DNA of 64,000 bases, taken from NCBI RefSeq assembly GCF_039595295.1, contig NZ_JBCNLU010000023.1, positions 2,665 to 66,664 on the forward strand, written 5' to 3'. Under the pieces are notes generated by a model, which ran no database searches, had not been told where the DNA came from, and saw only the letters and a list, made by a program, of their open reading frames with translations. Within the stretch, counting starts at the first letter, position 1. Each line of letters begins with the position of its first letter. Below are positions 9,098 through 31,135 of this stretch, in pieces. The position numbers and the translations under genes were made by a program. This DNA is from Roseateles sp. Its GTDB lineage: Bacteria > Pseudomonadota > Gammaproteobacteria > Burkholderiales > Burkholderiaceae_C.

Positions 9098-9141
9098 CGC
9101 GGAGCTCCGGTGCGCTCTGGGCTGCGACGGCCCTCACCCCA

Positions 9142-9173
9142 ACCGGCGGATCGACCGGCGGATCGACCGGCGG
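9142..9173. repeat. 12-bp tandem repeat ACCGGCGGATCG, 2.7 copies
   Basis: Read directly from the sequence. Confidence 0.7.
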
Positions 9174-9276
9174 CGCGCCTGCGACGTATCGGCGTGTAGC
9201 AAGGGCGTCGGGCAATCGCACGACCTGCGCGAGGCTCGCGCCAGTCCCGGTCCCGGCGCGACCGAAACGGTCGGAC

Positions 9277-9294
9277 TAACTCTTTCGAGGGATG
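9277..9294 (+). promoter_or_regulatory. 18-bp motif TAACTCTTTCGAGGGATG, identical to 27914-27931 on the minus strand
   Basis: Exact match between two intergenic regions; regulatory role inferred. Confidence 0.6.
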
Positions 9295-9346
9295 CCTCGG
9301 CGCTCCCGCGCCTTGCGCCGGCGAGGTGGCGGCTCCTATGATGGGT

Positions 9347-9371
9347 TTCATGTAGTGTTCCCTACATTGAA
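9347..9371. promoter_or_regulatory. Palindromic operator TTCATGTAG-N6-CTACAT(T)GAA, also present at 24436-24459
   Basis: Inverted repeat ending 6 nt before the ATG at 9378. Confidence 0.6.
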
Positions 9372-9377
9372 GTGCCC

Positions 9378-12300
9378 ATGAACGACCTCGCCCACCTGCC
9401 CTCCATCGAGCTGTCCCCCCACGGACCGCGTCTGCATCGCGTCAGCCCCGCGGCCGGGGCGGCGACGCTGGTGGCCGGCCGCGGCAGCGAGGCGCCGGCC
9501 ACCCTGGCCGTCCTGCAGCGCGAGTACGCCTTCCGCGCCGCCCTGCATCCCGACTGGGCCGCCATCCCCGAATCCATGCAGCCCGCCGGAGAGGGCGCCT
9601 TGCTGTTGCTGCGCGACCCCGGCGGTCGCTTGCTGCGCGAGCTCGTCGGCGCACCGCTGCCCGCCGAAGACTTTCTGCGCCTGGCCCTGGCGATCACGAC
9701 GGCGGTCGAGGGCATGCACGGCGCGGCCGTGATCCACCGCGCGCTCTCGCCCGATCGCATCTTCATCGACGGCCCCGCCGCCCGCGCCACGCTGACCGGT
9801 TTCGGCTTCGCGCTGCGTCTGGGCGCGCCCGGACCGCAGGCGGACGAGACGCTCGCCTGGGACGACAGCTGCTTCGACTACATGGCGCCCGAGCTGGGCG
9901 CCCGCATGAATGTCGATGTCGACGCGCGTGCCGATCTCTATGCGCTGGGCTGCATCTTTCATGAGCTGCTCACCGGCGCGCCGCCTTTCGAGGGCGCCGA
10001 CACCGCGGCGCGCGTCCACGCCCACGCGACTCGACGGCCCGCGCCGCCACACGAGTCCCGCCCCGATCTGCCGGCGCAACTGTCGAGGATCGTCATGCGA
10101 TTGCTGGAGAAGTCCCCCGATCAGCGCTACGCCGATGCCAACGGCCTGCTCGCCGACCTGCGCAGCTGCGACGAGCTGCTGCGCCGCCATGGCGAGATCC
10201 CCGATTTCGCGCTCGACGCCCGCGCCGCGATCGCCGCCGTGCGCGACGACGGACCGCTGGTTGGCCGCGATGACGAACTGGTCCAGCTGCGCCTGCTGCA
10301 TGAGCGCGTGCTGGCCGGCGACGGCGCGCAGACCGGCTGGGTTTGGGGCCCGCCCGGGATCGGCAAGTCCTCGCTGCTGCGCGAGGCCGTCGCCCGCATG
10401 GGCGCCGGGCCGGGCACTGCGGCGCCGCTTGTGGCCACGGGCAAGTGCACCGCCGCGCGCGGCGGCCTTCCCTTTGATTGCCTGTCCCGCGCGCTGGAGC
10501 CGCTGTTGCAGCGCGTGCTGGGAAGCTCGGACATCGAGTTCGACGTCTGGCGCGACCGCCTGCGTGTGGCAACCGAGCCGGTCGGCGCCACTGTCGCCGG
10601 ACTGGTGCCGGGCTTGCGTCAGATCCTGGGCCTGCCCGCCGACGCGCAGGCGCCGGCCATGGCCGACGCGGCGCTGATCTTCGAGCGCGAGATCGTGCTG
10701 CGCGCGATGGCCCGCCTCATCGCCTGCTTCGCGCGTCCGGAGCGCCCGCTGGTGCTGCTGATCGACGACCTGCAATGGGCCGACGTGGACACGCTCCAGG
10801 TCCTGGAGCGGCTGCTCATCGACCGTGCGCAGGCTCCGCTGCTGGTGCTGGGATCGGTGCGCTCGCAGGAATCGCCGGACGTGCAGGACGGGCATCCGCT
10901 GCGCGCGACGCCGCTGTTCCAGCGCCCCGACGCCCTGCATCTGCGCGTGAGCCCGCTGGAAGCCGGCGCCGCGCGCGAACTGGTCGCGCGTGCCCTGCAA
11001 CAAGACGCGGACCAGCTCGGCGAGCTGATCGCGCTGATCGAGTCCTGGACCGGCCGCAACCCCTTCTTCATCCGACGACTGCTGGCGCGTCTGGTCCACG
11101 AGCAGCTTCTGTCCTATGACGCCGAGTCCGCGCGCTGGACCTGGGCGATCGAGCGCATCGCCGCGCACCCCGCGATGCGCGACGTCGGCGAGCTGCTGGC
11201 CGACGAGCTGACCGCGCTGCCCGACGCCACGCGCGCGCTGCTGCACACGCTGGCCTGCCTGGGCGATCACGCCAAGGATTGCCTGCTCGCGTTCTCCGCC
11301 GGCATCGACGAGTCCATGCTGGCCGAGACCCTCGCGCCCGCGGTGGCGGCGGGCTTCGTCGCCGACGAGGGCGATCACTGGGCCTTCATCCACGACCACG
11401 TGCGCGAGGCGGTGCACGTCGCCCTGCCGACGGCGCAGCGCGCGGCGCTGCATCTGGACATCGCCCGGCGTCTGATGACGGTGGGCACCGGCGTCGTGCA
11501 GGCCGACGGCCGCACGGCGGCCAAGGCGGCGATGGCGGAACCGCCGGTGTTCTCGATCGCCGCGCAGGCCAACCTCGCCGCGCCCGCGGTGACGGATGCG
11601 GCGGAGCGGCGCCGCTTCGCGCTGATCAATCTGGAGGCCGGCAAGCGTGCGAAAGCCGCGACCGCGCATCACTCGGCCCTGGAGTTCCTGGGCTGGGCGC
11701 TGCACTGGTTCGGCGACGAGCAGACCAGCGCCGACGCGCTCGAGGCCAGCCTGCTCTGCGGCGAGGCCGAGTTCATGACCGGCGCGCTGGAGGCGGCCGA
11801 GGGCCGGCTGGCCGCGCTGCAGGGCATGGCCGGCGACGGACTCTTCGGCACGGACGTGGCGCGGCTGCGGGTCGCGCTCTACACGACGCTGGGCCGCTTC
11901 GATCTGGCGCTGGACGTGGGCTTCGCCTTCCTGGCGCGCGCGGGCATCGAGCTGCCGCGCCGGCCCACCGATGCGCAGGTCGACGAGGAGCATCAGCGTC
12001 TGCGCGGCTGGCTCGATGAGCGCGGCGTGGCCGGTCTGCGCCACATCGGCGCCGACACCGACCCGCTGCGCCGCGCGATCGTGGACATCTTTGCGGACCT
12101 GCTGCCGCCGGCGATGTACTCGGACCAGAACCTCGAGGACCTGATGCTGATGCGCATGGTCGGCCTGGCCGTCGCCAACGGTCACACCGACGCCTCGGTC
12201 AACGGCTACGTGTGCATGATCCGCGTGCTGGGCGAGCGCTACGGCGACTACGGGCGCTCGCGCGAGTTCGGCGAGCTGGCGCTGCATCTGATCGAGGACC

Positions 12301-14570
12301 GCGGCCTGCGCCGCTATCAGCAGCGCGTGCATCACACCTACGCGACCTTCGTCGTGCCCTGGACCGCGCCGGCCCGCGTCGCGCGTGAGCATCACCTGCG
12401 CGCCTTCGACATCGCGACCCGCGTCGGCGACCACACCTTCGCGCTGTACTGCGGGCGCAATCAGGCGACCGGGATGCTCTTCGCCGGCGACTTCCTGGAA
12501 GACGTGCGCCAGACCGTGGACCGCGCGCTGCAACGCGCGCGTGACGCCAACTTCAAGCTGGTTGTCGATGCCTTGCTGGCGCAGCGCTCGCTGCTGGCCG
12601 CGCTTCAAGACGGCGAACCCGGCCGCGACCACGCGGACCTGCAAGCCGCGCGCCCCGGCGATGCCGAGCGCATGGCCGAGCCGGTCGAGAGCGCGCCCGC
12701 CACGCTGGTCGACTTCGCCTATTGGGTCTATCGGTTGCAGGCGGGACTGCTCTTCGGCGATCTGCCGGAGGCGCTCGAGGCGCGTCGTCGCGCCGAGGCC
12801 TGCCAGCGCGCGGGCCGCTCGTTCGCCGAGTACGCGGACCTGCCGTTCTACGGCGCGCTCGCCTTGCTGCGTCTGCGCGAGCGCGACGACGCGCAGGAGG
12901 CCGCGCTGCGTCGTCATGTGGCGGCGCTGGACACCTGGGCCGCGGACTGCGCGGAGAACTTCGGCGCCCGTCGCGCGCTGGTGCTGGCCGAGCAGGCCCG
13001 CGCGCTCGGGCATGCGACCGAGGCCGCCGAGCTCTACGCCAGTGCCGTCGCGCAAGCGCGTCGCCACGGCTTCGCGCAGGTCGAGGCGCTGGCGGCGGAG
13101 CTCGCCGCCGGCTTCCACGCGGACCAGCATCGCGAGATCGAGAGCCGCGCCTATCTGCGCCATGCGCTGGCCGCCTGGCAGCGCTGGGGCGCGGTCGCGA
13201 AGGCGCGCGACCTGCTGCAGCGTCATCCCGAGCTCAATGACGCTGACCAGCCCGCTGCGCCGACCAGTCGACTGCATCAGCTGGACGTGCAGGCGGTGCT
13301 GCGCATCACGCATGCGCTGGCCAGCGACATCGTGCCCGAGCGCCTGGTCGAGACGACGATGCGCACCGCGCTGGAGTCCGCCGGCGCCGACTACGGCGCG
13401 CTCGCGCTGCTGCGCGACGGGCAATGGATCGTGCGGGCGCGCGCGCGGCTCAACGATGACGAGCTGGTCGTGACGCAGGAGCCGGCGCCGTTCTCGCCCG
13501 AGGTGCTACCGGTCTCGATCGCGCATGCGGTGGCGCGCACGCAGCATGCGGTGCAGCACGACGACGCGCGTGACGCGCCGGCTCTGGCGCAGGACGACTA
13601 CGTGATGCGCGCCAAGCCGCGCTCGCTGCTATGCGTGCCGATGATGCGCTACGCGCGTCTGATCGGCGTGCTCTACCTGGAGAACTCGCTGGCGCCGCGC
13701 GTCTTCACCACGGCCAAGGCCGAGCTGCTGGAGGTGATCGCGTCGCAGGCGGCCTTCTCGCTGGAGAACACGCGGCTCTATGAGGAGCTCGTCGATCAGA
13801 ACCGCCAGCGCGCCGAGGCCGAGGAGCGTCTGCGCAACGCGCTGCAGGAGCTCGCGCGTGCCAGCCGGTTGAAGGCGATGGGCGAGCTGGTCGCTTCCAT
13901 CGTTCACGAGATCGGTCAACCACTCAGCGCCATCGACACCTCGGCCAGCGCGGCCGGTCGCTGGCTGCGCCGGCCCGAGCCCGACATCGGCGAGGCGCTC
14001 ACCATGATTTCCCATGTGAGTCTGAGCGCCAAGCGCGCGAAAAGCATCATCCAGGGACTGCGCGCGATGGCACGCAAAGCCGAGCCGCAGTTTGCCGAGG
14101 TTGATCTGGGCGACGCGCTGCGCGAGTGCGCGACCCTGGTCGGCGGCTCGCTGGCGGAGCTCGGCGTCACGCTGTCGGTGACGGGACCCACGATGCCTTG
14201 CCCGGTGCGCGGCGACCGGGTGCAGCTGCAGCAGGTCGCGATCAATCTGCTGATGAACGGCGCCGAGGCCATGTCCGATCTGCCGACCGATCTGCGCCGT
14301 CTGTCCCTGCAGTGGGCGGTGACGCGTCCGGATCTGGTCGAGGTCGTCGTCGAGGACCGCGGCGTGGGCATCGCCGCCGACGCGGTCCGTCAGGTGCTGG
14401 AGCCCTTCTTCACGACCAAGTCGCACGGGATGGGCATGGGTCTGGCGATCTGCAAATCCATCGTCGATGCGCACGGCGGCGCGTTGAGTTTCGATCCGGG
14501 CGCCATTGGCGGCACGCGGGTCACGCTGAGCCTGCCCAGCTTTGGCGCCAGTCCTCAGCAGGAAGGATGA
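9378..14570 (+). CDS. Multidomain sensor: Ser/Thr kinase-like + AAA ATPase + helical repeats + GAF + histidine kinase
   Basis: IHRALSP..TGFG..YMAPE (degenerate kinase); Walker A GPPGIGKS; Walker B LLIDDLQWAD; GAF PRSLLCVPM..GVLYLEN; H-box SIVHEIGQPL; N/G1/F/G2 boxes NLLMNG, EDRGVGI, PFFTTK, GMGMGL. Confidence 0.9.
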   Translation: MNDLAHLPSIELSPHGPRLHRVSPAAGAATLVAGRGSEAPATLAVLQREYAFRAALHPDWAAIPESMQPAGEGALLLLRDPGGRLLRELVGAPLPAEDFLRLALAITTAVEGMHGAAVIHRALSPDRIFIDGPAARATLTGFGFALRLGAPGPQADETLAWDDSCFDYMAPELGARMNVDVDARADLYALGCIFHELLTGAPPFEGADTAARVHAHATRRPAPPHESRPDLPAQLSRIVMRLLEKSPDQRYADANGLLADLRSCDELLRRHGEIPDFALDARAAIAAVRDDGPLVGRDDELVQLRLLHERVLAGDGAQTGWVWGPPGIGKSSLLREAVARMGAGPGTAAPLVATGKCTAARGGLPFDCLSRALEPLLQRVLGSSDIEFDVWRDRLRVATEPVGATVAGLVPGLRQILGLPADAQAPAMADAALIFEREIVLRAMARLIACFARPERPLVLLIDDLQWADVDTLQVLERLLIDRAQAPLLVLGSVRSQESPDVQDGHPLRATPLFQRPDALHLRVSPLEAGAARELVARALQQDADQLGELIALIESWTGRNPFFIRRLLARLVHEQLLSYDAESARWTWAIERIAAHPAMRDVGELLADELTALPDATRALLHTLACLGDHAKDCLLAFSAGIDESMLAETLAPAVAAGFVADEGDHWAFIHDHVREAVHVALPTAQRAALHLDIARRLMTVGTGVVQADGRTAAKAAMAEPPVFSIAAQANLAAPAVTDAAERRRFALINLEAGKRAKAATAHHSALEFLGWALHWFGDEQTSADALEASLLCGEAEFMTGALEAAEGRLAALQGMAGDGLFGTDVARLRVALYTTLGRFDLALDVGFAFLARAGIELPRRPTDAQVDEEHQRLRGWLDERGVAGLRHIGADTDPLRRAIVDIFADLLPPAMYSDQNLEDLMLMRMVGLAVANGHTDASVNGYVCMIRVLGERYGDYGRSREFGELALHLIEDRGLRRYQQRVHHTYATFVVPWTAPARVAREHHLRAFDIATRVGDHTFALYCGRNQATGMLFAGDFLEDVRQTVDRALQRARDANFKLVVDALLAQRSLLAALQDGEPGRDHADLQAARPGDAERMAEPVESAPATLVDFAYWVYRLQAGLLFGDLPEALEARRRAEACQRAGRSFAEYADLPFYGALALLRLRERDDAQEAALRRHVAALDTWAADCAENFGARRALVLAEQARALGHATEAAELYASAVAQARRHGFAQVEALAAELAAGFHADQHREIESRAYLRHALAAWQRWGAVAKARDLLQRHPELNDADQPAAPTSRLHQLDVQAVLRITHALASDIVPERLVETTMRTALESAGADYGALALLRDGQWIVRARARLNDDELVVTQEPAPFSPEVLPVSIAHAVARTQHAVQHDDARDAPALAQDDYVMRAKPRSLLCVPMMRYARLIGVLYLENSLAPRVFTTAKAELLEVIASQAAFSLENTRLYEELVDQNRQRAEAEERLRNALQELARASRLKAMGELVASIVHEIGQPLSAIDTSASAAGRWLRRPEPDIGEALTMISHVSLSAKRAKSIIQGLRAMARKAEPQFAEVDLGDALRECATLVGGSLAELGVTLSVTGPTMPCPVRGDRVQLQQVAINLLMNGAEAMSDLPTDLRRLSLQWAVTRPDLVEVVVEDRGVGIAADAVRQVLEPFFTTKSHGMGMGLAICKSIVDAHGGALSFDPGAIGGTRVTLSLPSFGASPQQEG

Positions 14571-16937: not shown

Positions 16938-17624
16938 ATGCAGCAAGTGTTTTCCCAGCCCGGCAAGCCGGCCCCCCACATCGCCGGCCAGGCGGACGCT
17001 GCGGTGCGCCGCACCGTGTTCATCGTCGACGACGAGGACCTGATCCGGACCTCGCTGGCCAGCTTGCTGCGCTCGATGGAACTAGAGGTGAAAGACTTCC
17101 CCTCGACCGCGGCCTTCCTCGCCGCGCCCAAGGTCAGCGGTCCGTCCTGTCTGGTGCTGGACGTGCGGCTGCGCGGTGAAAGCGGGCTGGCCTTCCAGCA
17201 GTCGCTGGCCGGCCGCGGCCTGGGCCACATGCCGGTGATCATCATGACCGGCCATGGGGATGTCTCCATGACCGTGCGGGCGATGAAGGCCGGCGCGCGC
17301 GACTTCCTCGAGAAGCCGTTCCGCGACCAGGACATGATCGACGCGGTCATCGCCGCGCTGGAGCTCGATGCGAAGCGGCTGGTCGTCGAGCGCTCGCTCG
17401 AGGAGCTGCGGGGCTGCTGGGCGTCGCTCACGCCGCGCGAGCGCGAGGTGCTGGAGCACGTCGCCTCCGGTCGTCTGAACAAGCAGATTGCCGGGGAGAT
17501 GGGCATCGCCGAGATCACCGCCAAGATCCACCGCGGCCAGGGCATGCGCAAGATGCGATCGCGCTCGGTGGCGGAGCTGGTGCGCAAGATGCAGGCGCTC
17601 GGCGTGATCCGCGAGACCGTCTGA
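16938..17624 (+). CDS. FixJ/TodT-type response regulator (REC + LuxR HTH)
   Basis: VFIVDDED, CLVLDVRL, MTGHGD, KAGARDFLEKP, LTPREREV...NKQIA. Confidence 0.92.
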   Translation: MQQVFSQPGKPAPHIAGQADAAVRRTVFIVDDEDLIRTSLASLLRSMELEVKDFPSTAAFLAAPKVSGPSCLVLDVRLRGESGLAFQQSLAGRGLGHMPVIIMTGHGDVSMTVRAMKAGARDFLEKPFRDQDMIDAVIAALELDAKRLVVERSLEELRGCWASLTPREREVLEHVASGRLNKQIAGEMGIAEITAKIHRGQGMRKMRSRSVAELVRKMQALGVIRETV

Positions 17625-17664
17625 GCCCCGGAGCCCGCGCGTGTCGATCAGCCCCTCCGCCGTG

Positions 17665-18111
17665 ATGGCCGACCCGGATGCCCCGGTCGCCTCGGCACTT
17701 CCGGCCGCTGCGGTCGCCGCCGCCACCACCATCGTCGCCGTCGTTGACGACGACCCCTTCGTGCGCGCGGCCACCGGCAGCCTGGTGCGGGCTTTCGGCT
17801 GGGAGGCTCACACCTTCTGCTCGGCCGAGGACTACTTGGCGTCGGGCCTCGCGGCGCGCACCGCCTGCCTGGTCTGCGACATCCAGATGGAGAGGCTCGA
17901 CGGCATCGGGCTGCTGGCGCGCTTGCAGAAGGACGGCGTCGCGCCGCCGACGCTGTTCATCACGGCCTTGACATCGGAGACGGTGCGGCGCCGCGCCTTG
18001 GGGCAGGGCGCGCTGCACGTCATCGACAAACCGATCGATGCGAATGAGCTGGAGGAGTGGGTGCAGCGGGCGCTGGCGTCGGGGCCGCGAGGCCGCGCGT
18101 CAGGCGGCTGA
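17665..18111 (+). CDS. Single-domain response regulator
   Basis: VAVVDDDPFVR, CLVCDIQM..LDG, LFITA, IDKP. Confidence 0.85.
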   Translation: MADPDAPVASALPAAAVAAATTIVAVVDDDPFVRAATGSLVRAFGWEAHTFCSAEDYLASGLAARTACLVCDIQMERLDGIGLLARLQKDGVAPPTLFITALTSETVRRRALGQGALHVIDKPIDANELEEWVQRALASGPRGRASGG

Positions 18112-19801: not shown

Positions 19802-22681
19802 TCATGATCGTGTCGATCGCGCATGCACGCCGCGACCGGTGGCGGCAAGCGCGCGCAGCACCACGTCCGGCGTCGCCGGCGCCTCGCGCACGCGGGCGCC
19901 GGTGGCGTGGTGGATCGCGTTGAGGATGGCGGCGGCGGTGGGCACCAGCGCCGGCTCGCCGATGCCCTTGGCGCCGTAGGGGCCGATGGCCGTCGGAGCC
20001 TCGACGAAGAGCGTCTCGACCTCGGGCACGTCGTGCACCGTCGGGATCAGGTAGTCGTGCAGGTTGTCGTTGCGGCCGGGCAGGTACTGCTCCATCAGCG
20101 CGAGTCCCACGCCTTGCGCGACCGCGCCTTCGATCTGGCCTTCGAGCAGGGTCGGGTTGACCATGCGGCCCACGTCGTGCGCCGCCACGACGCGGCGCAC
20201 CCGCACGCGGCCGGTCTCGATGTCGACCTCGACCTCGGCCATCTGCGCGCCGAAGGCGTAGGTCGCGTAGGGACGGCCCTGGCCGGCGGCGTTCAGCGCC
20301 ACGGTGGGCGGGTCGAAGCGCTCCTCGGCGGCGATGGCGTAGCCGTGGACGTCGACGGGCAGGTCGGCCAAGGACAAGCGTCGCGCGACGCCTGTCCCGT
20401 CCGCTTGCGTGTCTGACCCCGTCTCAGCGCCGGTGCCGTCATCGCTTCGGACGCCGACCCAGCCAGGACCGAACACGACTGGCGCATCGGCCGGCGCGTC
20501 CAGCAGCGAGCGCACGCGGCGCAGCAGCGCGGTGCCGGCGAGGAAGGTCGCTCGCCCGGTGACGAAGGTCTGGCGCGAGGCCGAGGTGCGGCCGCAGTCC
20601 GGCGTCAGATGCGTGTCCGCGCCGACGATGTGCAGGCGCGTGATGGGCACGCCCAGCGCGTCGGCGGCGATCTGCGGGATCACCGTGTTGGCGCCTTGTC
20701 CCGCGTCGACCGCGCCCTGATGCAGCACCAGCGTGCCGTCGGGCCGCAGCCCGATGCGGACCGTCGACGGATTGGGCGACGCGGTGTTGCCGCAGCCGTA
20801 GAAGAAGGCCGCCATGCCGACGCCGTAGCGAAGGTGAGGGCGCGCCGCCCCGTTTCGTTCGTGGGCACGCTCGCGCGCCGCGATCCAATGCGGCCGCAGC
20901 GCATCGAGGCACGCCACCATGCCGACGCTGTCATCGAGTACCTGCCCCGTGGGCAGCGAGTCGCCCGGCCTCAGCGCGTTGCGGGCGCGGAACTCCAGCG
21001 GATCCCAACCGCCGTGCAGCGCGAGCTCGTCGATCAACTGCTCCTGCGACATCGTCGTCTGCGGCACGCCGAAGCCGCGGAAGGCGCCGGCCGGCGTGAT
21101 GTGCGTGTGGACGGCGCGGGCGCGCGCGGCGTAATGCGGCACACGATAAGGGCCGCCCGCATGCACCGGTACGCGGTTGGCGACCGCCGTTCCCCACGAC
21201 GCATAGGCGCCGGTGTTGTAGTCGCCTTCGAATTCGACCGCCCGCAGCAGACCTTGCTCATCGGCGGCGAGCGTGGAGACGATGCGCGCCGGATGCCGTT
21301 TGGTCGAGGTCGCCATCGATTCCTCGCGCGTGAACACGATGCCCACGGGGCGATCCAGATGCCAAGCCGCGACTGCGAGCAACGGTTGCACCGTCATGTC
21401 CAGCTTGCCGCCGAAGCCGCCGCCCACGGCGGTCGGCACGACGCGGATGCGCTCCGGCGCGACGCCCATCACCCTCGCGAGGTCCTCGCGATGCGGATGC
21501 GGCGCCTGCGTCGGCGAGCGGACTTCGATCGTGTCGCCGACGCGCCGTGCCCAGCCGGCTTCGGGCTCCAGGTAGGCGTGCTCGACGAAGCTCGACGAGA
21601 AGCGGCCGCTGACGACGTGCGCCGCCTCGCGGATCGCGGCCGCCGCGTCGCCGCGCTTCACGCGGCCTTCGATCAACTGGTTGCCGACGCGGCTCGCGTG
21701 AAGCTGCGGGCTGTCGGGGTGGGCGGCGTCCTCGACGCTGAAGACGGCGGGCAGCGGCGTCCAGGTGACCGGGAAGTCGGCGAGGTCCAGCGCGGCGACG
21801 GCCTCGCGCTCACCGGCGATCAGCGCGACGGCTTCGAGGCGGTGACGGGTCTCGCTCTCGGCGAGGACCGGCTGGTCCGCATAGGCCGGCGCGATGCCGT
21901 GGAGGTTGCGGCCCGGCACGTCGGCGTGCGTGAACACGCGGACGATTCCGGGATGGGCTTGGACGAAGCCGTCGACGTCGCCGAGCGTGAAGCGTGCGCG
22001 GTGATGCGGGCTGCGGACCGCGCGCAGGAAGAGGGCGTCGGCGGGAATGCCGTCGGCGCCGAAGTGCTGGCTGCCGTCGACCTTGCAGGGGCCGTCCAGG
22101 CGGGTGAGCGGCTGGCCGACGTTGATGCCGGTCTCGGGCGGCGGCGTGAGCGGGCGCGAATCGGCGCCGGTGGCGACCTCGACGATCGCGTCGACGATCT
22201 TGCGATAGCCGGTGCAGCGACACAGCACGCCGTCGATCGCGGCGCAAGCGGTGGCGCGGTCCGTCACCCGGCCCGCATCGATCGCGGCCGCCGCGGCGGT
22301 GAGCATCGCCGGGATGCAGAAGCCGCATTGCACCGCCTGGTGCGCGAGGAAGGCGTGCTGCAGGCGCGCGCCGGTGCGACTGGATTCGGCCAGGCCCTCG
22401 ACGGTCAGAACGCGACAGCCGTCGAGCTGCGCGACCGGCGTGATGCAGGCGTAGCGGGGCTCGCCGTCGACGACGATGCTGCAGCTGCCGCAGTCGCCCT
22501 GGCCGCAACCGACCTTGGTGCCGGTCAGGCCCAGGTCCTCGCGCAGGAAGGCGACGACGGTGCGCGAGCGATCGGCAGGCAGCGTGCGGCGCTGGCCGTT
22601 GATCTCGGCCCAGGCGGTGTCGCCCGCATCGGCGCATGCGTCGGCGGAGGGCGGCGTCGTGACTTCATTTGGAGGCGACAT
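19802..22681 (-). CDS. Xanthine dehydrogenase-family Mo hydroxylase, fused 2x[2Fe-2S] + Moco-binding subunit
   Basis: CGQGDCGSC, QCGFC, LCRCTGY; GGGFGGK, AFRGFG, QIEG, KGIGE catalytic Glu. Confidence 0.9.
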   Translation of the reverse strand: MSPPNEVTTPPSADACADAGDTAWAEINGQRRTLPADRSRTVVAFLREDLGLTGTKVGCGQGDCGSCSIVVDGEPRYACITPVAQLDGCRVLTVEGLAESSRTGARLQHAFLAHQAVQCGFCIPAMLTAAAAAIDAGRVTDRATACAAIDGVLCRCTGYRKIVDAIVEVATGADSRPLTPPPETGINVGQPLTRLDGPCKVDGSQHFGADGIPADALFLRAVRSPHHRARFTLGDVDGFVQAHPGIVRVFTHADVPGRNLHGIAPAYADQPVLAESETRHRLEAVALIAGEREAVAALDLADFPVTWTPLPAVFSVEDAAHPDSPQLHASRVGNQLIEGRVKRGDAAAAIREAAHVVSGRFSSSFVEHAYLEPEAGWARRVGDTIEVRSPTQAPHPHREDLARVMGVAPERIRVVPTAVGGGFGGKLDMTVQPLLAVAAWHLDRPVGIVFTREESMATSTKRHPARIVSTLAADEQGLLRAVEFEGDYNTGAYASWGTAVANRVPVHAGGPYRVPHYAARARAVHTHITPAGAFRGFGVPQTTMSQEQLIDELALHGGWDPLEFRARNALRPGDSLPTGQVLDDSVGMVACLDALRPHWIAARERAHERNGAARPHLRYGVGMAAFFYGCGNTASPNPSTVRIGLRPDGTLVLHQGAVDAGQGANTVIPQIAADALGVPITRLHIVGADTHLTPDCGRTSASRQTFVTGRATFLAGTALLRRVRSLLDAPADAPVVFGPGWVGVRSDDGTGAETGSDTQADGTGVARRLSLADLPVDVHGYAIAAEERFDPPTVALNAAGQGRPYATYAFGAQMAEVEVDIETGRVRVRRVVAAHDVGRMVNPTLLEGQIEGAVAQGVGLALMEQYLPGRNDNLHDYLIPTVHDVPEVETLFVEAPTAIGPYGAKGIGEPALVPTAAAILNAIHHATGARVREAPATPDVVLRALAATGRGVHARSTRS

Positions 22682-23519
22682 GGTTCACCTCCATCTCGAT
22701 GCCGCAGTGCGCGGCGGCGCGCTCGATGGCGACGCGCACCAGATGGCGGCGCAGCGCGGCGCTGCCGCGGTGGTCGTCGATGGGCGAGAGCTCCGGCATC
22801 GGCGTGTCGCGGATGAGGTGCGTCAGGTCGACGGGGCGGGCGCCCTCGAGTCTCGCCTCGAGACCGCGCAGCCGCACCGGGACGTCCGAGGCGCCGCCAA
22901 TGGCGATCGCGGCGCGCGCGGCGACGCCGTTCTCGTTCCATCGCAGGCAGAGCGCCGCCGAGACCGTGGCCAATGCCGTCCCGTCGCGATTGGCGAGCTT
23001 GATGAAGGCGCCGCGCTCATGCGGAGCGGGCGTCGGGATGAGCACGGCGCTCAGCAACTCATCCGGCCTCAGCGCGGTGTGGCGCCGCCCGAGCAGGAAC
23101 TGATCGAGCCGCAATCGCCGGACACCGGCCAGGCTGGCGAGCTCGACCTGCGCCTCCAGCGCGAGCAGCGGCGGCACGCCGTCGGCGATCGGCGAGGCGT
23201 GGCAGAGGTTGCCTCCCAGCGTTCCCTGCACCCGGATCTGCCGGGAGCCGACCTGGCCCGCCGCCTCGCGCAGCACGCCCGGCGTGAGCGGCGATTGCTC
23301 GATCGCTTCCCAGGTCGCGGCGGCGCCGATGCGCAGATGGCCGTCCGTCAGCGCGATGGGCTTCAGCGACGCGACCCGGCCGATGTCCAGCCACGTCGAC
23401 CCGGCGACCGGGCGGGACGGATCGGCATAGACGTCGGTGCCGCCGCAGAGCACGCGCCGCGGATGGCGCGCGAGCTCGGCCAGCGCCTCGTCGAGGGTGT
23501 GGACGCGAAGATGGTTCAT
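22665..23519 (-). CDS. FAD-binding subunit of the Mo hydroxylase (CoxM-like)
   Basis: LCGGTD, LRIGAAAT, VGSRQIRVQGTLGGNLCHASPIAD. Confidence 0.9.
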   Translation of the reverse strand: MNHLRVHTLDEALAELARHPRRVLCGGTDVYADPSRPVAGSTWLDIGRVASLKPIALTDGHLRIGAAATWEAIEQSPLTPGVLREAAGQVGSRQIRVQGTLGGNLCHASPIADGVPPLLALEAQVELASLAGVRRLRLDQFLLGRRHTALRPDELLSAVLIPTPAPHERGAFIKLANRDGTALATVSAALCLRWNENGVAARAAIAIGGASDVPVRLRGLEARLEGARPVDLTHLIRDTPMPELSPIDDHRGSAALRRHLVRVAIERAAAHCGIEMEVNHVASK

Positions 23520-23654
23520 CGGGGCAAGCGGCCGGTCCCAGGCGCGGGGCGCTGGGGGGAAGAGTCGTTCTGCCGGGCCGTGCGGGCGATCCTACAAGTC
23601 GAGGATGGCGCACGGTGCGCCCCGCGACGCCGATGCCGCTTGAGACCAGGATCG

Positions 23655-23674
23655 GCTACCTCTTCGGAGGTAGC
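23655..23674. other. Perfect 8-bp hairpin GCTACCTC-TTCG-GAGGTAGC
   Basis: Read directly; lies between tetR and the FAD-subunit gene; no U-tract. Confidence 0.55.
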
Positions 23675-23693: not shown

Positions 23694-24356
23694 TCAATCC
23701 GCTCGCACCACGCGCTGCAGGCTGTCGATGACGAAGCCTTCCCACTGCTCCGCGGCGACGCCGTTGTCGATGGAATCGCCCAGGAAGGCGGACATCGTGT
23801 AGCGGTTGGAGGTGAAGAAGTAGGACGCCGACACGATCAGCAGATAGACGTCGCGCGCGTTCAGCGCCGGTCGGAACAGTCCCCGCTCCGCGCCCGTCGT
23901 CAGGATGCGGTCGATCAGCCGCACCGCGTGCGAGGAGTACTCCGTCGCCTTGTCCGACTTCTGCACGTGCTTGCCCTTGAGCAGGTTCTCCGTGTTGAGC
24001 AGGTTCACGAACTCGGGATGCCGCCGGTAGTAGTCGATCTTAAAGCGGATCACCGTGTTCAAGGCCTCCACCGGATCGTCCGGGTCGGCGACGCACTTGG
24101 CCTCGGCCTCGTCCATGCGCTGGTAGATGCCTTCCAGCACCGCGATGAACAGCCCCTCCTTGCTGCCGAAGTAGTAATAGATCATCCGGTCGTGCGTCTT
24201 CGCGGAGCTCGAGATCTTCTCGATGCTGCCGCCGTCGTAGCCGTACCGGGCGAAGACCTTGGTCGCCGCCTTGAGGATGCTGTCGCGGGTCGCCTGGGCG
24301 GCGGCCTCGCGCATGCCGGTGCCGCGCACCGCCTTGGTCTGCTTGGTCTGGGCCAT
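23694..24356 (-). CDS. TetR-family regulator (RutR-like)
   Basis: TRDSILKAATKVFARYGYDG...MIYYYFGSKEGLF; LLNTENL. Confidence 0.9.
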   Translation of the reverse strand: MAQTKQTKAVRGTGMREAAAQATRDSILKAATKVFARYGYDGGSIEKISSSAKTHDRMIYYYFGSKEGLFIAVLEGIYQRMDEAEAKCVADPDDPVEALNTVIRFKIDYYRRHPEFVNLLNTENLLKGKHVQKSDKATEYSSHAVRLIDRILTTGAERGLFRPALNARDVYLLIVSASYFFTSNRYTMSAFLGDSIDNGVAAEQWEGFVIDSLQRVVRAD

Positions 24357-24435
24357 GAATGTTCCGGTGCCCGGAGCGCCGCCATCCTGGGCGGCGTCTC
24401 CGTCCCGACGCGGGATCGCCGCGCCGGATGTTGAT

Positions 24436-24459
24436 TTCATGTAGCAGGCACTACATGAA
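24436..24459. promoter_or_regulatory. Perfect palindrome TTCATGTAG-N6-CTACATGAA, candidate TetR operator
   Basis: 9-bp arms, about 80 bp upstream of the tetR start. Confidence 0.7.
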
Positions 24460-27171: not shown

Positions 27172-27813
27172 TCAGAGCTCGATGATCCCGCGCTTGAGCG
27201 CGATGGTGACCGCATGCGTGCGGTCCTTGGCCGAGAGCTTGCCCAGGATGGTCCGGATGTGGACCTTGACCGTCTCCTCGGTCAGCGAGAGGCTCTCGGC
27301 CACTTCACGATTCGCCTGACCCAGCGCGACCAGCCGCAGCACCTGGGTCTCGCGCAGCGACAGCGTGCGGCTGTGCGCGTGCTGGGCGATGGCGGCCTCG
27401 ATCTCCGCCGGCACCATCAGCCGACCCGCGTGCACGCCGCGGATGGTGTCCACCAGGTCGGTGCGCAGCAGGCCCTTGAGCAGATAGCCGGAGGCGCCCG
27501 CCTTCATCGCCCGCATGGCCTGGAAGTCGCCGGGGAAAGTGGTGAGGATGACGATGCGCGCCTCGGGGAACTCGCGACGGATCGCGGCCATCGCCTCGAT
27601 GCCGTCCATGTCTCGCATGCGCAGGTCCATCAGCGTGACATCGGGCAGGTGCTGGCGGAAGCGGGTGAGCGCATCCAGCCCGTTGCCCGCCTCGGCCACC
27701 AGGCGCATGTCCGGCTCGGCGTCCACGACGGTGGCGATGCCACTGCGCATCAGCGCATGGTCGTCGACGGCCATCACAGTGATGGGCCGGGGGCTCGGGG
27801 TGGTGTCGGTCAC
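27172..27813 (-). CDS. NarL/LuxR-family response regulator
   Basis: MAVDDHALMR, PDVTLMDLRM, ILTTF, GYLLK, LSLRETQVL...NREVA; start either 27813 (GTG) or 27858. Confidence 0.92.
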   Translation of the reverse strand: MTDTTPSPRPITVMAVDDHALMRSGIATVVDAEPDMRLVAEAGNGLDALTRFRQHLPDVTLMDLRMRDMDGIEAMAAIRREFPEARIVILTTFPGDFQAMRAMKAGASGYLLKGLLRTDLVDTIRGVHAGRLMVPAEIEAAIAQHAHSRTLSLRETQVLRLVALGQANREVAESLSLTEETVKVHIRTILGKLSAKDRTHAVTIALKRGIIEL

Positions 27814-27913
27814 AGGGGCGGCAAGAAGGACGCGATCGGCCGGATCGCGAAAGCCCAAGCGTAGCCGCTGTGCCGGCCGCCGGCTGACGTACCGTTGCCC
27901 CCGGTTGCGAAGT

Positions 27914-27931
27914 CATCCCTCGAAAGAGTTA
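27914..27931 (-). promoter_or_regulatory. Second copy of the 18-bp motif TAACTCTTTCGAGGGATG
   Basis: CATCCCTCGAAAGAGTTA on the + strand is the exact reverse complement of 9277-9294. Confidence 0.6.
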
Positions 27932-27991
27932 TTCCGCGACCTGGCCGGACCAAAGTTCTGATAGCGTCCGCGCGACCTCCCGCTCGAGTCG

Positions 27992-30900
27992 ATGACGTCC
28001 GATCCCCACCGTTCGCCGCTGCGCCAAGGCTTCTGCCAGCGCTTCTTGCAGCGTCTCCTGCAACGCTGTGCCCTGCGGTCGCTGCGGCGCCTTGCCGCGA
28101 CCGTGGTCGTCCTGTGGGCGTCCGTGGCGGGCCTCCCGGCGGCCTGGGCGCTGGATGCGGATCTGCGGCTGAGCCAGTTCCAGCATCGCGCCTGGACGGC
28201 CGCGGACGGCGCGCCGACCGAGACCTGGGCGATGACGCAGTCCACCGACGGCCTGATCTGGATGGGCGGACCCGGCGGGTTGCTGCGCTTCGACGGTCTG
28301 CGCTTCGAGCGCTTCCCGACTTCGAGGGCGACGCCGTTCCCGGCCGGCGCGGTGTTGCGGGTGATGGCCGCGTCCAACGGCGATCTGTGGGTGAGCTTCT
28401 TCCCCCGCGGGCTGGTGCGGATCCGGCAGGGCGAGGTCTGGCAGGTGCCGGAGTCCGAGCCGGTCGCCGCGCAGCGGGTGCGCTACCTGTCCGAGGATGC
28501 CGACGGGCGGATCTGGGTCGGCGGCGAATCCGCCTTCTTCCGCTTCGACGGCGAGCACTGGACGCGGGGCGACGAGATCCCGGGCTTCGGCGGCATGCCG
28601 CTGGGCGGGCTGGTGATCGACGGCCGCGGCACGGTGTGGGTGTGCGCGCGGGACCGGCTGGTGCAGGCGCTGCCGCGCGGCGCGACCAGTTTCAAGAGCG
28701 TGGGCGATTGCACCGACGCGCGCAGCATGCCGGTGACGGACGGCCGGGTCTGGATCGTCGACGCGAAGTCGGCGCGGCGCATGCCCGAGGTCTCCCAAGC
28801 CCCGCTGCTGCCCCGGCTGACCTGGGGCGCGAGACGCTCGTCGCCGACCTGGCTCGATCGCGAGAGCAACCTGTGGTCGCTGTACTGCCCCGCCGGGCTC
28901 TGTCGGCGAAAGCTGCCGATCTCCACCTCCGACGCCATCGACCTCCCCGAACCCCCCGAACGCATGGGCGTCGCCGAGGGCCTGAGCGGCGACTTCGGCA
29001 TGACGATGATGGAGGACGTCGAGGGCAATCTGTGGGTCGCGACCAAGACCGGTTTGGACCGGTTCCGGCGCGCGGCGCTGGTCCCGGCGGAGCTGCCGCG
29101 CGGGACCAGCAACTACGCGCTCGCGGCGGAGCCCGACGGCAGCGTGTGGACGGCGGCATCCGCGACGGGGACCTATTCGAAATGGCGCTTGAGCGGCGTC
29201 GGCGATGCGGCGTCCCTCCCGGCACCGAATGCGCAGGTCACCGCGGTCGGACGCGACGCGCAGGGGCGTCTGCTGATGGGCGGATCGAGCGGCCTGTGGC
29301 GCAGGGAGGGGGAGCGCTGGGTCGAGCTGCCACGGCCCGTCGGCGCGCAAGGCCGATGGGTGCTGGGCATCGCGGCGCAGGGCGGGAGCATGCTGGCCTC
29401 GTTCCAGAAGCTGGGCGTGCAGCGCTTCGACGACGGGGTCTGGCAGCCGCTGGCGGTGCCCGGCGAGCCGGGTCCGGTCGAGGCGGCCTTGGCGGTCGCG
29501 CCGGATGACGCGGTCTGGCTGGGGCTCAAGAACAACCGCGTGCTGCGCTTGAAGGACGGTGCGGTGCGCCGCTTCGGACCGGAGGAGGGCGTCGATGTCG
29601 GCGATCCCTTCCTGGTTTATGCAGGGCGCACGCGCGTGCTGGTGGCCGGCGGGCTGGGTGTGGACGTGTTGCACGGGGATCGTTTCGTGCCGCTGATGTC
29701 CGAGTCCACGGATGCGCTGATGGGCGTGTCGGGCATCGTGGAGACGGCCAACGGCGACCTCTGGCTCAACGGCCGCAAGGGCGCCGTGCAAGTGACCAAG
29801 GCCGATCTGGACGCCTTCCTCGCGGATCCTGGAAAGCCTTTGCGGCATGCGCTGATCGATGCGCTCGACGGCTATCCGGTCAGCGCGACCTCGTTCTGGC
29901 CGCAGCCCAGCGTCGTGGAGGCCGCGGATGGGCGGCTCTGGTTCGCGGGCATCACGGGCGTCGCCTGGCTGGATCCGCGCCGTCTGACGCGCAACCCGGT
30001 GGCGCCGGTCGCGCGCGTGACCGGCGTGCGCGCCGACGGCGTCGAGTACCCGCCCGGCGCGCCGCTGCGGCTGCCGATCAAGACCTCGATGCTGGAGCTG
30101 CGCTTCTCGGCGGCCAGCCTGTCCATTCCGGAGCGGGTGCGCTTCCGGTTCAAGCTGGAGGGCCAGGATCGCGGCTGGCGCGACAGGACTTCGCGGCGCG
30201 AGACCCTGTACACCAACCTCGCGCCGGGGCGCTACGTCTTCCACCTGCAGGCCTTCAACAACGACGGTGTGCCGACGGCGGGCGAGACCCTCCAGGTCAT
30301 CGAGATCCCCGCGGCCTTCTATCAGACGCTGTGGTTCCGCGCCGCCTGCGTGCTGGCGGCCATCGCGCTGATCTGGGCGCTGCACCGGTTGCGCATGCGG
30401 CAGGCGGCACGCGCCGCGCGCGAGAAGCTGCGCACCCGGCTGGCCGAGCGCGAGCGCATCGCGCGCGAGCTGCACGACACGCTGCTGCAGGGCGTGCAGG
30501 GACTGATCCTGCGCTTCGAGGCGAACGCGACGCGGCTGCCGATCGATCACCCCGCCCGCGCGGCCATGGAGCAAGACCTGGCCCTCGCGGATGAGGTGCT
30601 GGACGAAAGCCGCCGGCGGGTGATGGCGCTGCGCTCGACGCCGGCCGCGGCGGGAAGCCTGGCGCGAGCGCTGGAGGACGTGATCGCGCAACTGGCGCGG
30701 GACTACGACGGCGAATGCCGCGTGGAGATCGAGGGCCGTGAGCGTCCCTTGAAGCCTGAGGTCCGCGAGGAGCTGCGATTGATCTTCGGCGAGGCGTTGC
30801 TGAACGCCTTCCGGCATGCCGACGCGACGCGGATGACGCTGTGCCTGCGCTACGGCTGGCGGGGGCTGCGGGTCACGCTGAGCGACGATGGGCGGGGCAT

Positions 30901-31135
30901 TGCGCCGAAGCTGCTGGCGGACGGTCGGCCGGGTCACCTGGGGCTGGTCGCGATGCGCGAGCGCGCGAGGGCGATCGGGGCGCGTTTGTCCGTGGCCAGT
31001 CGCGTGGGGAAGGGGACCACCGTGGAGCTGCGGCTGCGCGCGTCGAAGGCGTATGCCGCCGGGCCGATCGAATCGGCCCATACAGCCGATTCAGCCGATG
31101 CGGTCGGTCCGGTGAAGGACAATCCCGCCCCATGA
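27992..31135 (+). CDS. Sensor histidine kinase: periplasmic beta-propeller + Y_Y_Y + HisKA_3 + HATPase
   Basis: Repeated D.DG.LW motifs; [14 protein letters not shown]...[10 protein letters not shown]; TM helix; [15 protein letters not shown]; DDGRG, GHLGL. Confidence 0.9.

Follow-up and report, generated by a model that had tools for sequence, protein, structure and literature searches.

A conserved 16-bp inverted repeat as candidate operator of a NarL-family regulator at three promoters in Roseateles

The locus

The window, i. e. the whole 64-kb stretch of DNA that was analysed here, has a G+C content of about 70%, and its nearest relatives among public genomes are Roseateles/Mitsuaria (Burkholderiales). 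A reading of the sequence alone (the sequence-only reading) had called a giant kinase, a NarL-family regulator and a divergent sensor gene in it, and the domain content confirmed these three calls. The features referred to below are the following:

9277..9292, + strand: site K, an exact match to the 16-bp core TAACTCTTTCGAGGGA; the 18-mer runs to 9294
9313..9342, + strand: putative kinase promoter with -35-like TTGCGC (9313-9318), an 18-nt spacer and -10-like TATGAT (9337-9342)
9378..14570, + strand: giant protein (1,730 aa) with Ser/Thr-kinase, AAA_16, GAF, HisKA and HATPase domains; proposed target
19802..23519, - strand: xanthine-dehydrogenase-like operon with FAD subunit (22665-23519) and fused 2Fe-2S/Mo subunit (19802-22681); proposed third target
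23589..23594, - strand: -10-like TAGGAT (ATCCTA on the + strand), 62 nt from site X, of a putative promoter of the dehydrogenase operon
23657..23672, no strand assigned: site X, the related dyad TACCTCTTCGGAGGTA, in the gap that separates the TetR stop codon from the xanthine-dehydrogenase-like operon
27172..27813, - strand: NarL/LiaR/VraR-family response regulator with receiver and GerE domains; proposed binder
27857..27866, - strand: block GGCTACGCTT, containing the -10-like TACGCT (27863-27858) of a putative regulator promoter
27916..27931, - strand: site R, an exact match to the 16-bp core in the divergent regulator/sensor gap; the 18-mer spans 27914-27931
27959..27967, + strand: extended -10-like TGATAGCGT of a putative sensor-kinase promoter
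27992..31135, + strand: cognate sensor histidine kinase, divergent, with Reg_prop beta-propellers, Y_Y_Y, HisKA_3 and HATPase domains

Among solved structures the regulator matched VraR, LiaR and NarL best. The sensor homologues retrieved belong for the most part to soil Betaproteobacteria and Acidobacteriota. Downstream of the giant kinase and of DUF4148 and thioredoxin-like genes, a FixJ-like LuxR-type response regulator (~16980-17624) and a stand-alone receiver (17641-18111) are encoded, which are probably the giant kinase's own partners.

The shared sequence is a 16-bp dyad

It had been claimed that the region upstream of the giant kinase and the regulator/sensor gap share an exact 18-mer. 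This was borne out: TAACTCTTTCGAGGGATG occurs exactly at 9277-9294 on the + strand and at 27914-27931 on the - strand, no further copy with up to three mismatches was found within the 64 kb, and no match arose in 100 dinucleotide-preserving shuffles. The distances given for the two copies were likewise correct by the coordinates, the + copy ending 83 nt before the kinase ATG (9378) and the - copy 100 nt before the regulator GTG (27813). The sharing in this genome thus stands, but not the extent of 18 bp, since other genomes keep only 16. The conserved unit is the 16-bp core TAACTCTTTCGAGGGA, i. e. the first 16 bases of the 18-mer; the last two bases (TG) are common to the two copies of this genome only, and in M. 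chitosanitabida the bases after the 16-mer are TG and GG at the two copies.

The core is an imperfect inverted repeat of the 7-2-7 type, in which the heptamer TAACTCT and the weaker heptamer TCCCTCG are separated by 2 bp. Its dyad skeleton reads T..CTC....GAG..A, and the conserved block coincides in length with this architecture (two inverted 7-bp half-sites and a 2-bp gap, 16 bp in all). Perfect palindromic versions of the dyad exist as TAACTCGATCGAGTTA in R. agri and as TACCTCGTTCGAGGTA at site X of M. chitosanitabida. When the window was searched for the generalised dyad TAMCTCK-NN-MGAGKTA with at most two mismatches, three matches were obtained (9277, 23657 and 27916) against 0.15 expected. 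In 258 kb of Roseateles loci, the dyad was found at the three orthologous positions, at a paralogous operator in R. agri and at a copy in Caldimonas. Both copies had also been described as pointing into the cluster. Their orientation is as described, but it carries little weight because the core is near-palindromic.

Conservation at orthologous positions

The regulator/sensor gap was aligned for seven genomes whose sensors are 58-84% identical, and the comparison was then made with 14 regulator-upstream regions. All 16 positions of TAACTCTTTCGAGGGA were invariant in the 14 aligned regulator-upstream sequences, while the flanks had diverged. A 15th genome, R. chitinivorans P36, carries the core in the same arrangement, which brings to 15 the Roseateles/Mitsuaria genomes that have it unchanged upstream of the orthologous response-regulator gene. 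Three conserved islands stand out amid the diverged gap DNA: the core, GGCTACGCTT on the regulator strand and AAGTTCTGnTAGCGT on the sensor strand. A site at which none of 16 positions varies is more strictly conserved than regulator sites usually are, which counts against reading the core as an operator.

Upstream of the kinase gene the 16-mer is kept in six genomes, with kinases 65-88% identical. Two of these six loci (So40a and MAG120) have the exchange C10->A, giving TAACTCTTTAGAGGGA, which makes the dyad more symmetric. In So40a, PDC51 and MAG120, a distance of 15-18 kb separates the kinase orthologue from the regulator/sensor pair.

As a check, the sequence-only reading had proposed a genome-wide search for the 18-mer. 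When 596 Gb of species-representative genomes were scanned for exact matches to the 18-mer and the 16-mer, no generic repeat was revealed. The 18-mer gave five matches: the kinase locus of M. chitosanitabida, Caldimonas mangrovi and three in unrelated phyla. The 16-mer gave 97, of which 17 were in Roseateles/Mitsuaria or a related Burkholderiales MAG. Roseateles/Mitsuaria genomes contain the exact 16-mer once or twice, invariably at the same loci, and five complete Roseateles chromosomes have a single copy each. A dispersed intergenic repeat of the REP or MITE-like type was rejected on these grounds, i. e. at most two copies per genome and no unrelated contexts.

These data also bear on the view that the two copies are a chance match or the neutral remnant of a dispersed or mobile repeat. 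The three or so 18-mer matches in unrelated phyla correspond to chance frequency, and the final TG is not kept in other genomes, both of which would suit this view. It is however already contradicted by the conservation data: the core is kept at orthologous positions in 15 (regulator) and six (kinase) genomes with diverging flanks, never exceeds two copies per genome, has neither terminal repeats nor flanking homology, and was not matched in the shuffles mentioned above. We regard a chance or repeat origin as extremely improbable.

In Caldimonas mangrovi, the exact 18-mer (L005 3938-3955) lies between two winged-helix (Trans_reg_C) genes, and no sensor orthologue was retrieved from this species. 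The match may be due to chance or represent a related site; by a rough estimate about 0.2 matches are expected across the Burkholderiales. A variant site also precedes a Trans_reg_C gene in the loci L028 and L040.

Putative promoters downstream of the sites

In none of the three regions did a promoter scan call a sigma-70 promoter; the kinase candidate matched at 8 of 12 positions. The promoter positions used here are therefore those of the conserved hexamers alone. At the regulator gene, GCTACGCT is invariant in all 14 aligned upstream sequences. Of the 15 genomes, 12 have 42 nt between site R and TACGCT, So40a and MAG120 have 40 nt, and the window, where the regulator promoter carries a 10-bp insertion in this spacer, has 52 nt. 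On the opposite strand, the island AAGTTCTGnTAGCGT around the sensor -10-like element is kept in seven genomes, with the hexamer pattern TGnTAGCGT. The distance between site R and the sensor hexamer differs among genomes, so site R appears to be positioned for the promoter of the regulator. At the kinase gene, hexamers and spacing are kept in the six genomes as TTGCG(C/G), 17 or 18 nt and TAT(G/C)AT, and site K is 43 or 44 nt away from the -10-like hexamer.

When the hexamer is set at -12 to -7, the centres of the sites come to lie at about -61.5, -71.5 and -81.5, with -62.5/-63.5 for the kinase. Besides spacers of 42, 52 and 62 nt there are others of 40, 43 and 44 nt, and the spacings of 40, 42, 43 and 44 nt do not share one helical phase. 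7-2-7 sites from which NarL activates, through the C-terminal domain of the polymerase alpha subunit, are known at -44.5, -67.5 and -77.5 (PMC7419079). The near-fixed spacing to the conserved -10-like hexamers fits the positions expected of an upstream activator.

Other DNA-level explanations were considered as well. The core itself as a promoter for an alternative sigma factor (ECF or sigma-54) was rejected on inspection: only 16 bp are conserved, the GG/GC spacing is absent, and nothing at a fixed 16-17 nt downstream is conserved between the two classes of site. Likewise, inspection of the core for the IHF consensus yielded no match.

Alternatively, the motif could act at the RNA level, as a small hairpin (CUCU-UUCG-AGGG) in the 5' leaders of both mRNAs. 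Both copies have the same sense as the gene that follows, a hairpin of 3-4 bp with UUCG as its loop is possible within the core, and one contig of a presumed-RNA run spans copy 1. This contig could derive from read-through or DNA, and the coverage of public RNA-like runs is too low for locating transcription starts. Against an RNA element speak the conserved -35/-10-like elements downstream of the motif, the invariance of unpaired positions, and site X, which is palindromic with four variable central nucleotides. The two copies moreover fold differently and no better than shuffles (z-scores 0.48 and -0.59). Applied to 14 sequences, RNAalifold returned nothing beyond the small hairpin formed by the dyad; the covariation term was positive (0.3), and no more than one flanking pair co-varied. 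Rfam gave no match. With neither a covarying structure nor a known family, a cis-regulatory RNA element was dismissed, and we consider an RNA-level function very unlikely.

Two further inverted repeats were noticed in the DNA upstream of the regulator. The putative regulator 5' leader contains a terminator-like hairpin, CGCGATC-CGGCC-GATCGCG with a T-rich tail (27831-27849, - strand), which is partly conserved in M. chitosanitabida only and folds no better than shuffles (z = -0.88). Between site R and TACGCT, a palindrome is present in the R. noduli/chitinivorans clade (L075 6449-6466, L130, L101 and L123). It reads ATCATCCC-ca-GGGATGAT in one form and ATCGCCC-gca-GGGGCGAT in the other, the changes being apparently compensatory. 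This palindrome may represent a second operator, or it may have a structural role.

Site X and the dehydrogenase operon

Site X is kept in seven genomes as TACC[TC]CG-TT-CGAGGTA. It is palindromic with nearly invariant arms, and its central 4 nt vary. In M. chitosanitabida it has the form TACCTCGTTCGAGGTA and agrees with the 16-mer at 13 of 16 positions. It lies 138 nt upstream of the ATG of the FAD subunit (23519), and the block CGACTTGTAGGAT was kept together with the 62-nt spacer from site X to the hexamer in all four genomes compared. The complete genome of MS654, which yielded no kinase orthologue, keeps both site R and site X. Site X could nevertheless belong to a different protein. The TetR encoded next to it, at 23694-24440, is an unlikely candidate, as a different conserved palindrome lies upstream of the TetR gene.

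This second palindrome, CATGTAG-N6-CTACAT(G/T), is present twice in the window (9349-9368 and 24438-24457), and both copies are kept in orthologues. The copy about 80 nt upstream of the TetR gene has a variable central 6 nt. In the copy at the kinase gene, which lies just 3' of the -10-like hexamer at about +1 to +20, the central 6 nt are invariant. CATGTAG-N6-CTACATG is probably the TetR operator; if so, this would imply that TetR represses the giant kinase.

The regulator and its relatives

The base-contacting residues of NarL are K188, V189 and K192 (PMC10853779). In an alignment with E. coli NarL, the recognition helix of the window regulator reads TVKVHIR, that of NarL TVKVHVK, and the three NarL residues correspond to K, V and R (K-V-x-x-R). 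A GerE helix-turn-helix regulator with a NarL-like recognition helix is hence encoded close to the site. Fourteen of the 15 genomes encode the helix EETVKVH[I/M]RTILGKL downstream of site R; the CC2 locus ends before it.

Related dyads accompany homologous systems elsewhere. R. agri has a paralogous AraC/regulator/sensor operon with the perfect palindrome TAACTCGATCGAGTTA 98 nt upstream. In Sphingomonas, TTACTCTTTCGAGTGG is found about 100 nt upstream of the homologous sensor/regulator operon. Two uncultured betaproteobacteria (TCACTCTTTCGAGGCT) and an acidobacterium (variant TCACTCTTTAGAGTTT) carry a dyad 41-64 nt after the regulator stop and before the next gene. Of 57 sensor-homologue loci, 9 contained the exact 11-mer ACTCTTTCGAG, and not one of 20 shuffles did; the 11-mer adjoins homologous sensor/regulator pairs in Sphingomonas and uncultured betaproteobacteria. 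Generalised-dyad matches in L012 (inside dnaB) and L059 (in a coding region) were discarded as chance, the background expectation being about two.

These comparisons also help to weigh whether the core is the operator of some other transcription factor, such as the FixJ-like LuxR-type regulator (~16980-17624) or an unlinked regulator. A second GerE-type regulator is encoded near the giant kinase, the exact 18-mer is present in Caldimonas without a retrieved orthologous sensor, and it is by sequence comparison that the site is assigned to the adjacent regulator. On the other hand, the motif accompanies the pair of Reg_prop/Y_Y_Y sensor and NarL-type regulator in lineages without a retrieved kinase orthologue. 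The FixJ-like protein differs in its recognition helix (ITAKIHRGQ), and the TetR of the cluster has a distinct palindrome of its own, CATGTAG-N6-CTACATG. A different binding protein therefore seems improbable to us.

Discussion

The 18-mer had been interpreted as a site for the NarL-type regulator, with autoregulation and control of the kinase. The comparative evidence speaks for this interpretation, namely the conserved footprint at both loci, the 7-2-7 dyad, the co-conservation of the recognition helix, the related dyads in distant lineages and the finding that the sequence is not a generic repeat. We put the probability that the adjacent regulator binds the predicted site at roughly 0.7. 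Most likely, the conserved near-palindromic core reflects ordinary autoregulation wiring of a two-component system, which is conceptually standard.

In the proposed mechanism, a dimer of the phosphorylated NarL/LiaR-family regulator (27172-27813) would bind the 16-bp 7-2-7 operator. This operator would lie upstream of three promoters with weak -35 elements in a syntenic neighbourhood of about 20 kb, i. e. those of the regulator, the giant kinase and the dehydrogenase operon, the last carrying it as the variant TACCTC..GAGGTA. Activation of the class-I type from about -61.5, -71.5 and -81.5 would then result in positive autoregulation, and the beta-propeller sensor kinase would control a second signaling protein, the giant kinase, as well as a catabolic operon. 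We infer class-I-type activation for the regulator gene itself and the kinase, and probably for the dehydrogenase operon, from the fact that NarL is known to activate from comparable upstream positions. The binding protein, the transcription starts and the sign of regulation are all inferred from sequence, and activation rather than repression is proposed with less confidence than the binding itself.

A larger module can be drawn from this, in which the sensor and regulator would stand above the giant kinase in a cascade and above the Mo-hydroxylase operon, with the TetR repressor cross-wiring the kinase promoter through the second palindrome, at 9349 and 24438. We consider this module tentative and somewhat doubtful as a whole. 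If it were true, the kinase promoter would integrate two signals, and the 10-bp insertion in the regulator promoter of this genome would preserve the helical phase of activation.

The regulator had been labelled NarL. This holds at the level of the family but not for a nitrate system, as the sensor is not NarX-like and there is no link to nitrate. The E. coli NarL/NarP 7-2-7 operators (yeaR TAACCAATAAATGGTA; ogt sites I and II) have the same 16 bp with two inverted heptamers and a 2-bp gap. The NarL heptamer in E. coli is TACYYMT (PMC4886647); the heptamers TAACTCT and TACCTCT found here are related to it, whereas the arms TAACTC/TCCCTC differ. Compared with TACYYMT, sites K and R match at 6/7 and 5/7 positions, i. 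e. 11/14, which is at chance level, as seven window matches with at most three mismatches were found against 4.8 expected. Hence the likeness of these sites to NarL sites rests on the architecture and the protein, not on the consensus. Site X matches the E. coli NarL 7-2-7 consensus at 13/14 positions, with one mismatch. Further similarities are the GerE-type helix-turn-helix with K-V-x-x-K/R in the recognition helix (PMC10853779) and sites upstream of weak promoters at positions comparable with those of NarL activation sites (PMC7419079). In contrast to NarXL, the sensor is a periplasmic beta-propeller/Y_Y_Y kinase and not NarX or NarQ, and the apparent set of three local promoters differs from the global regulon of NarL. 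A strict NarXL nitrate/nitrite system was therefore rejected, given the Reg_prop/Y_Y_Y/HisKA_3 sensor and the proposed hybrid-kinase and dehydrogenase targets.

The closest solved relatives of the DNA-binding domain are LiaR and VraR, cell-envelope stress regulators of Firmicutes. LiaR and VraR autoregulate their own operons via an inverted repeat upstream of the promoter. The system described here differs from them in its Gram-negative betaproteobacterial host, the sensor architecture, the lack of a LiaF-like partner and the operator sequence. In two-component autoregulation of the PhoPQ type, an operator lies in the promoter region of the regulator itself, with further copies at target promoters. 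The candidate operator described here has the same distribution. Unlike in PhoPQ, the regulator and sensor genes are divergent instead of forming an operon, and one proposed target is a large hybrid Ser/Thr-kinase/histidine-kinase protein.

What is gained is a candidate operator and a putative three-promoter regulon for a family of beta-propeller/Y_Y_Y sensors and NarL-type regulators that is uncharacterised, together with a hint at how the gene of a very large hybrid Ser/Thr-kinase/histidine-kinase is controlled. The value lies in the annotation of this sensor family rather than in any surprise.

Several minor observations concern the DNA upstream of site K. Directly 5' of it, at 9265-9276, the block AAAC(G/C)(G/C)TCG(G/A)AC is kept in all six kinase loci and absent at site R; it could be the site of a second factor or an UP-like element. 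Further upstream, the 12-mer CCGGCGGATCGA forms a tandem duplicate at 9143-9166 and is present as a single copy in one public run (12 nt missing at 9142). Several contigs from public runs, otherwise unrelated, match the stretch 9111-9144, which suggests a small dispersed element.

The candidate operator and its distant variants could also provide a handle on the recognition-helix residues that set half-site specificity in GerE-type regulators. In a comparison of five lineages, the amino acid at the position of NarL V189 varied together with the second half-site base: V goes with TAAC, A with TTAC, and G or S with TCAC. On these five data points, the residue at this position may be a specificity determinant.
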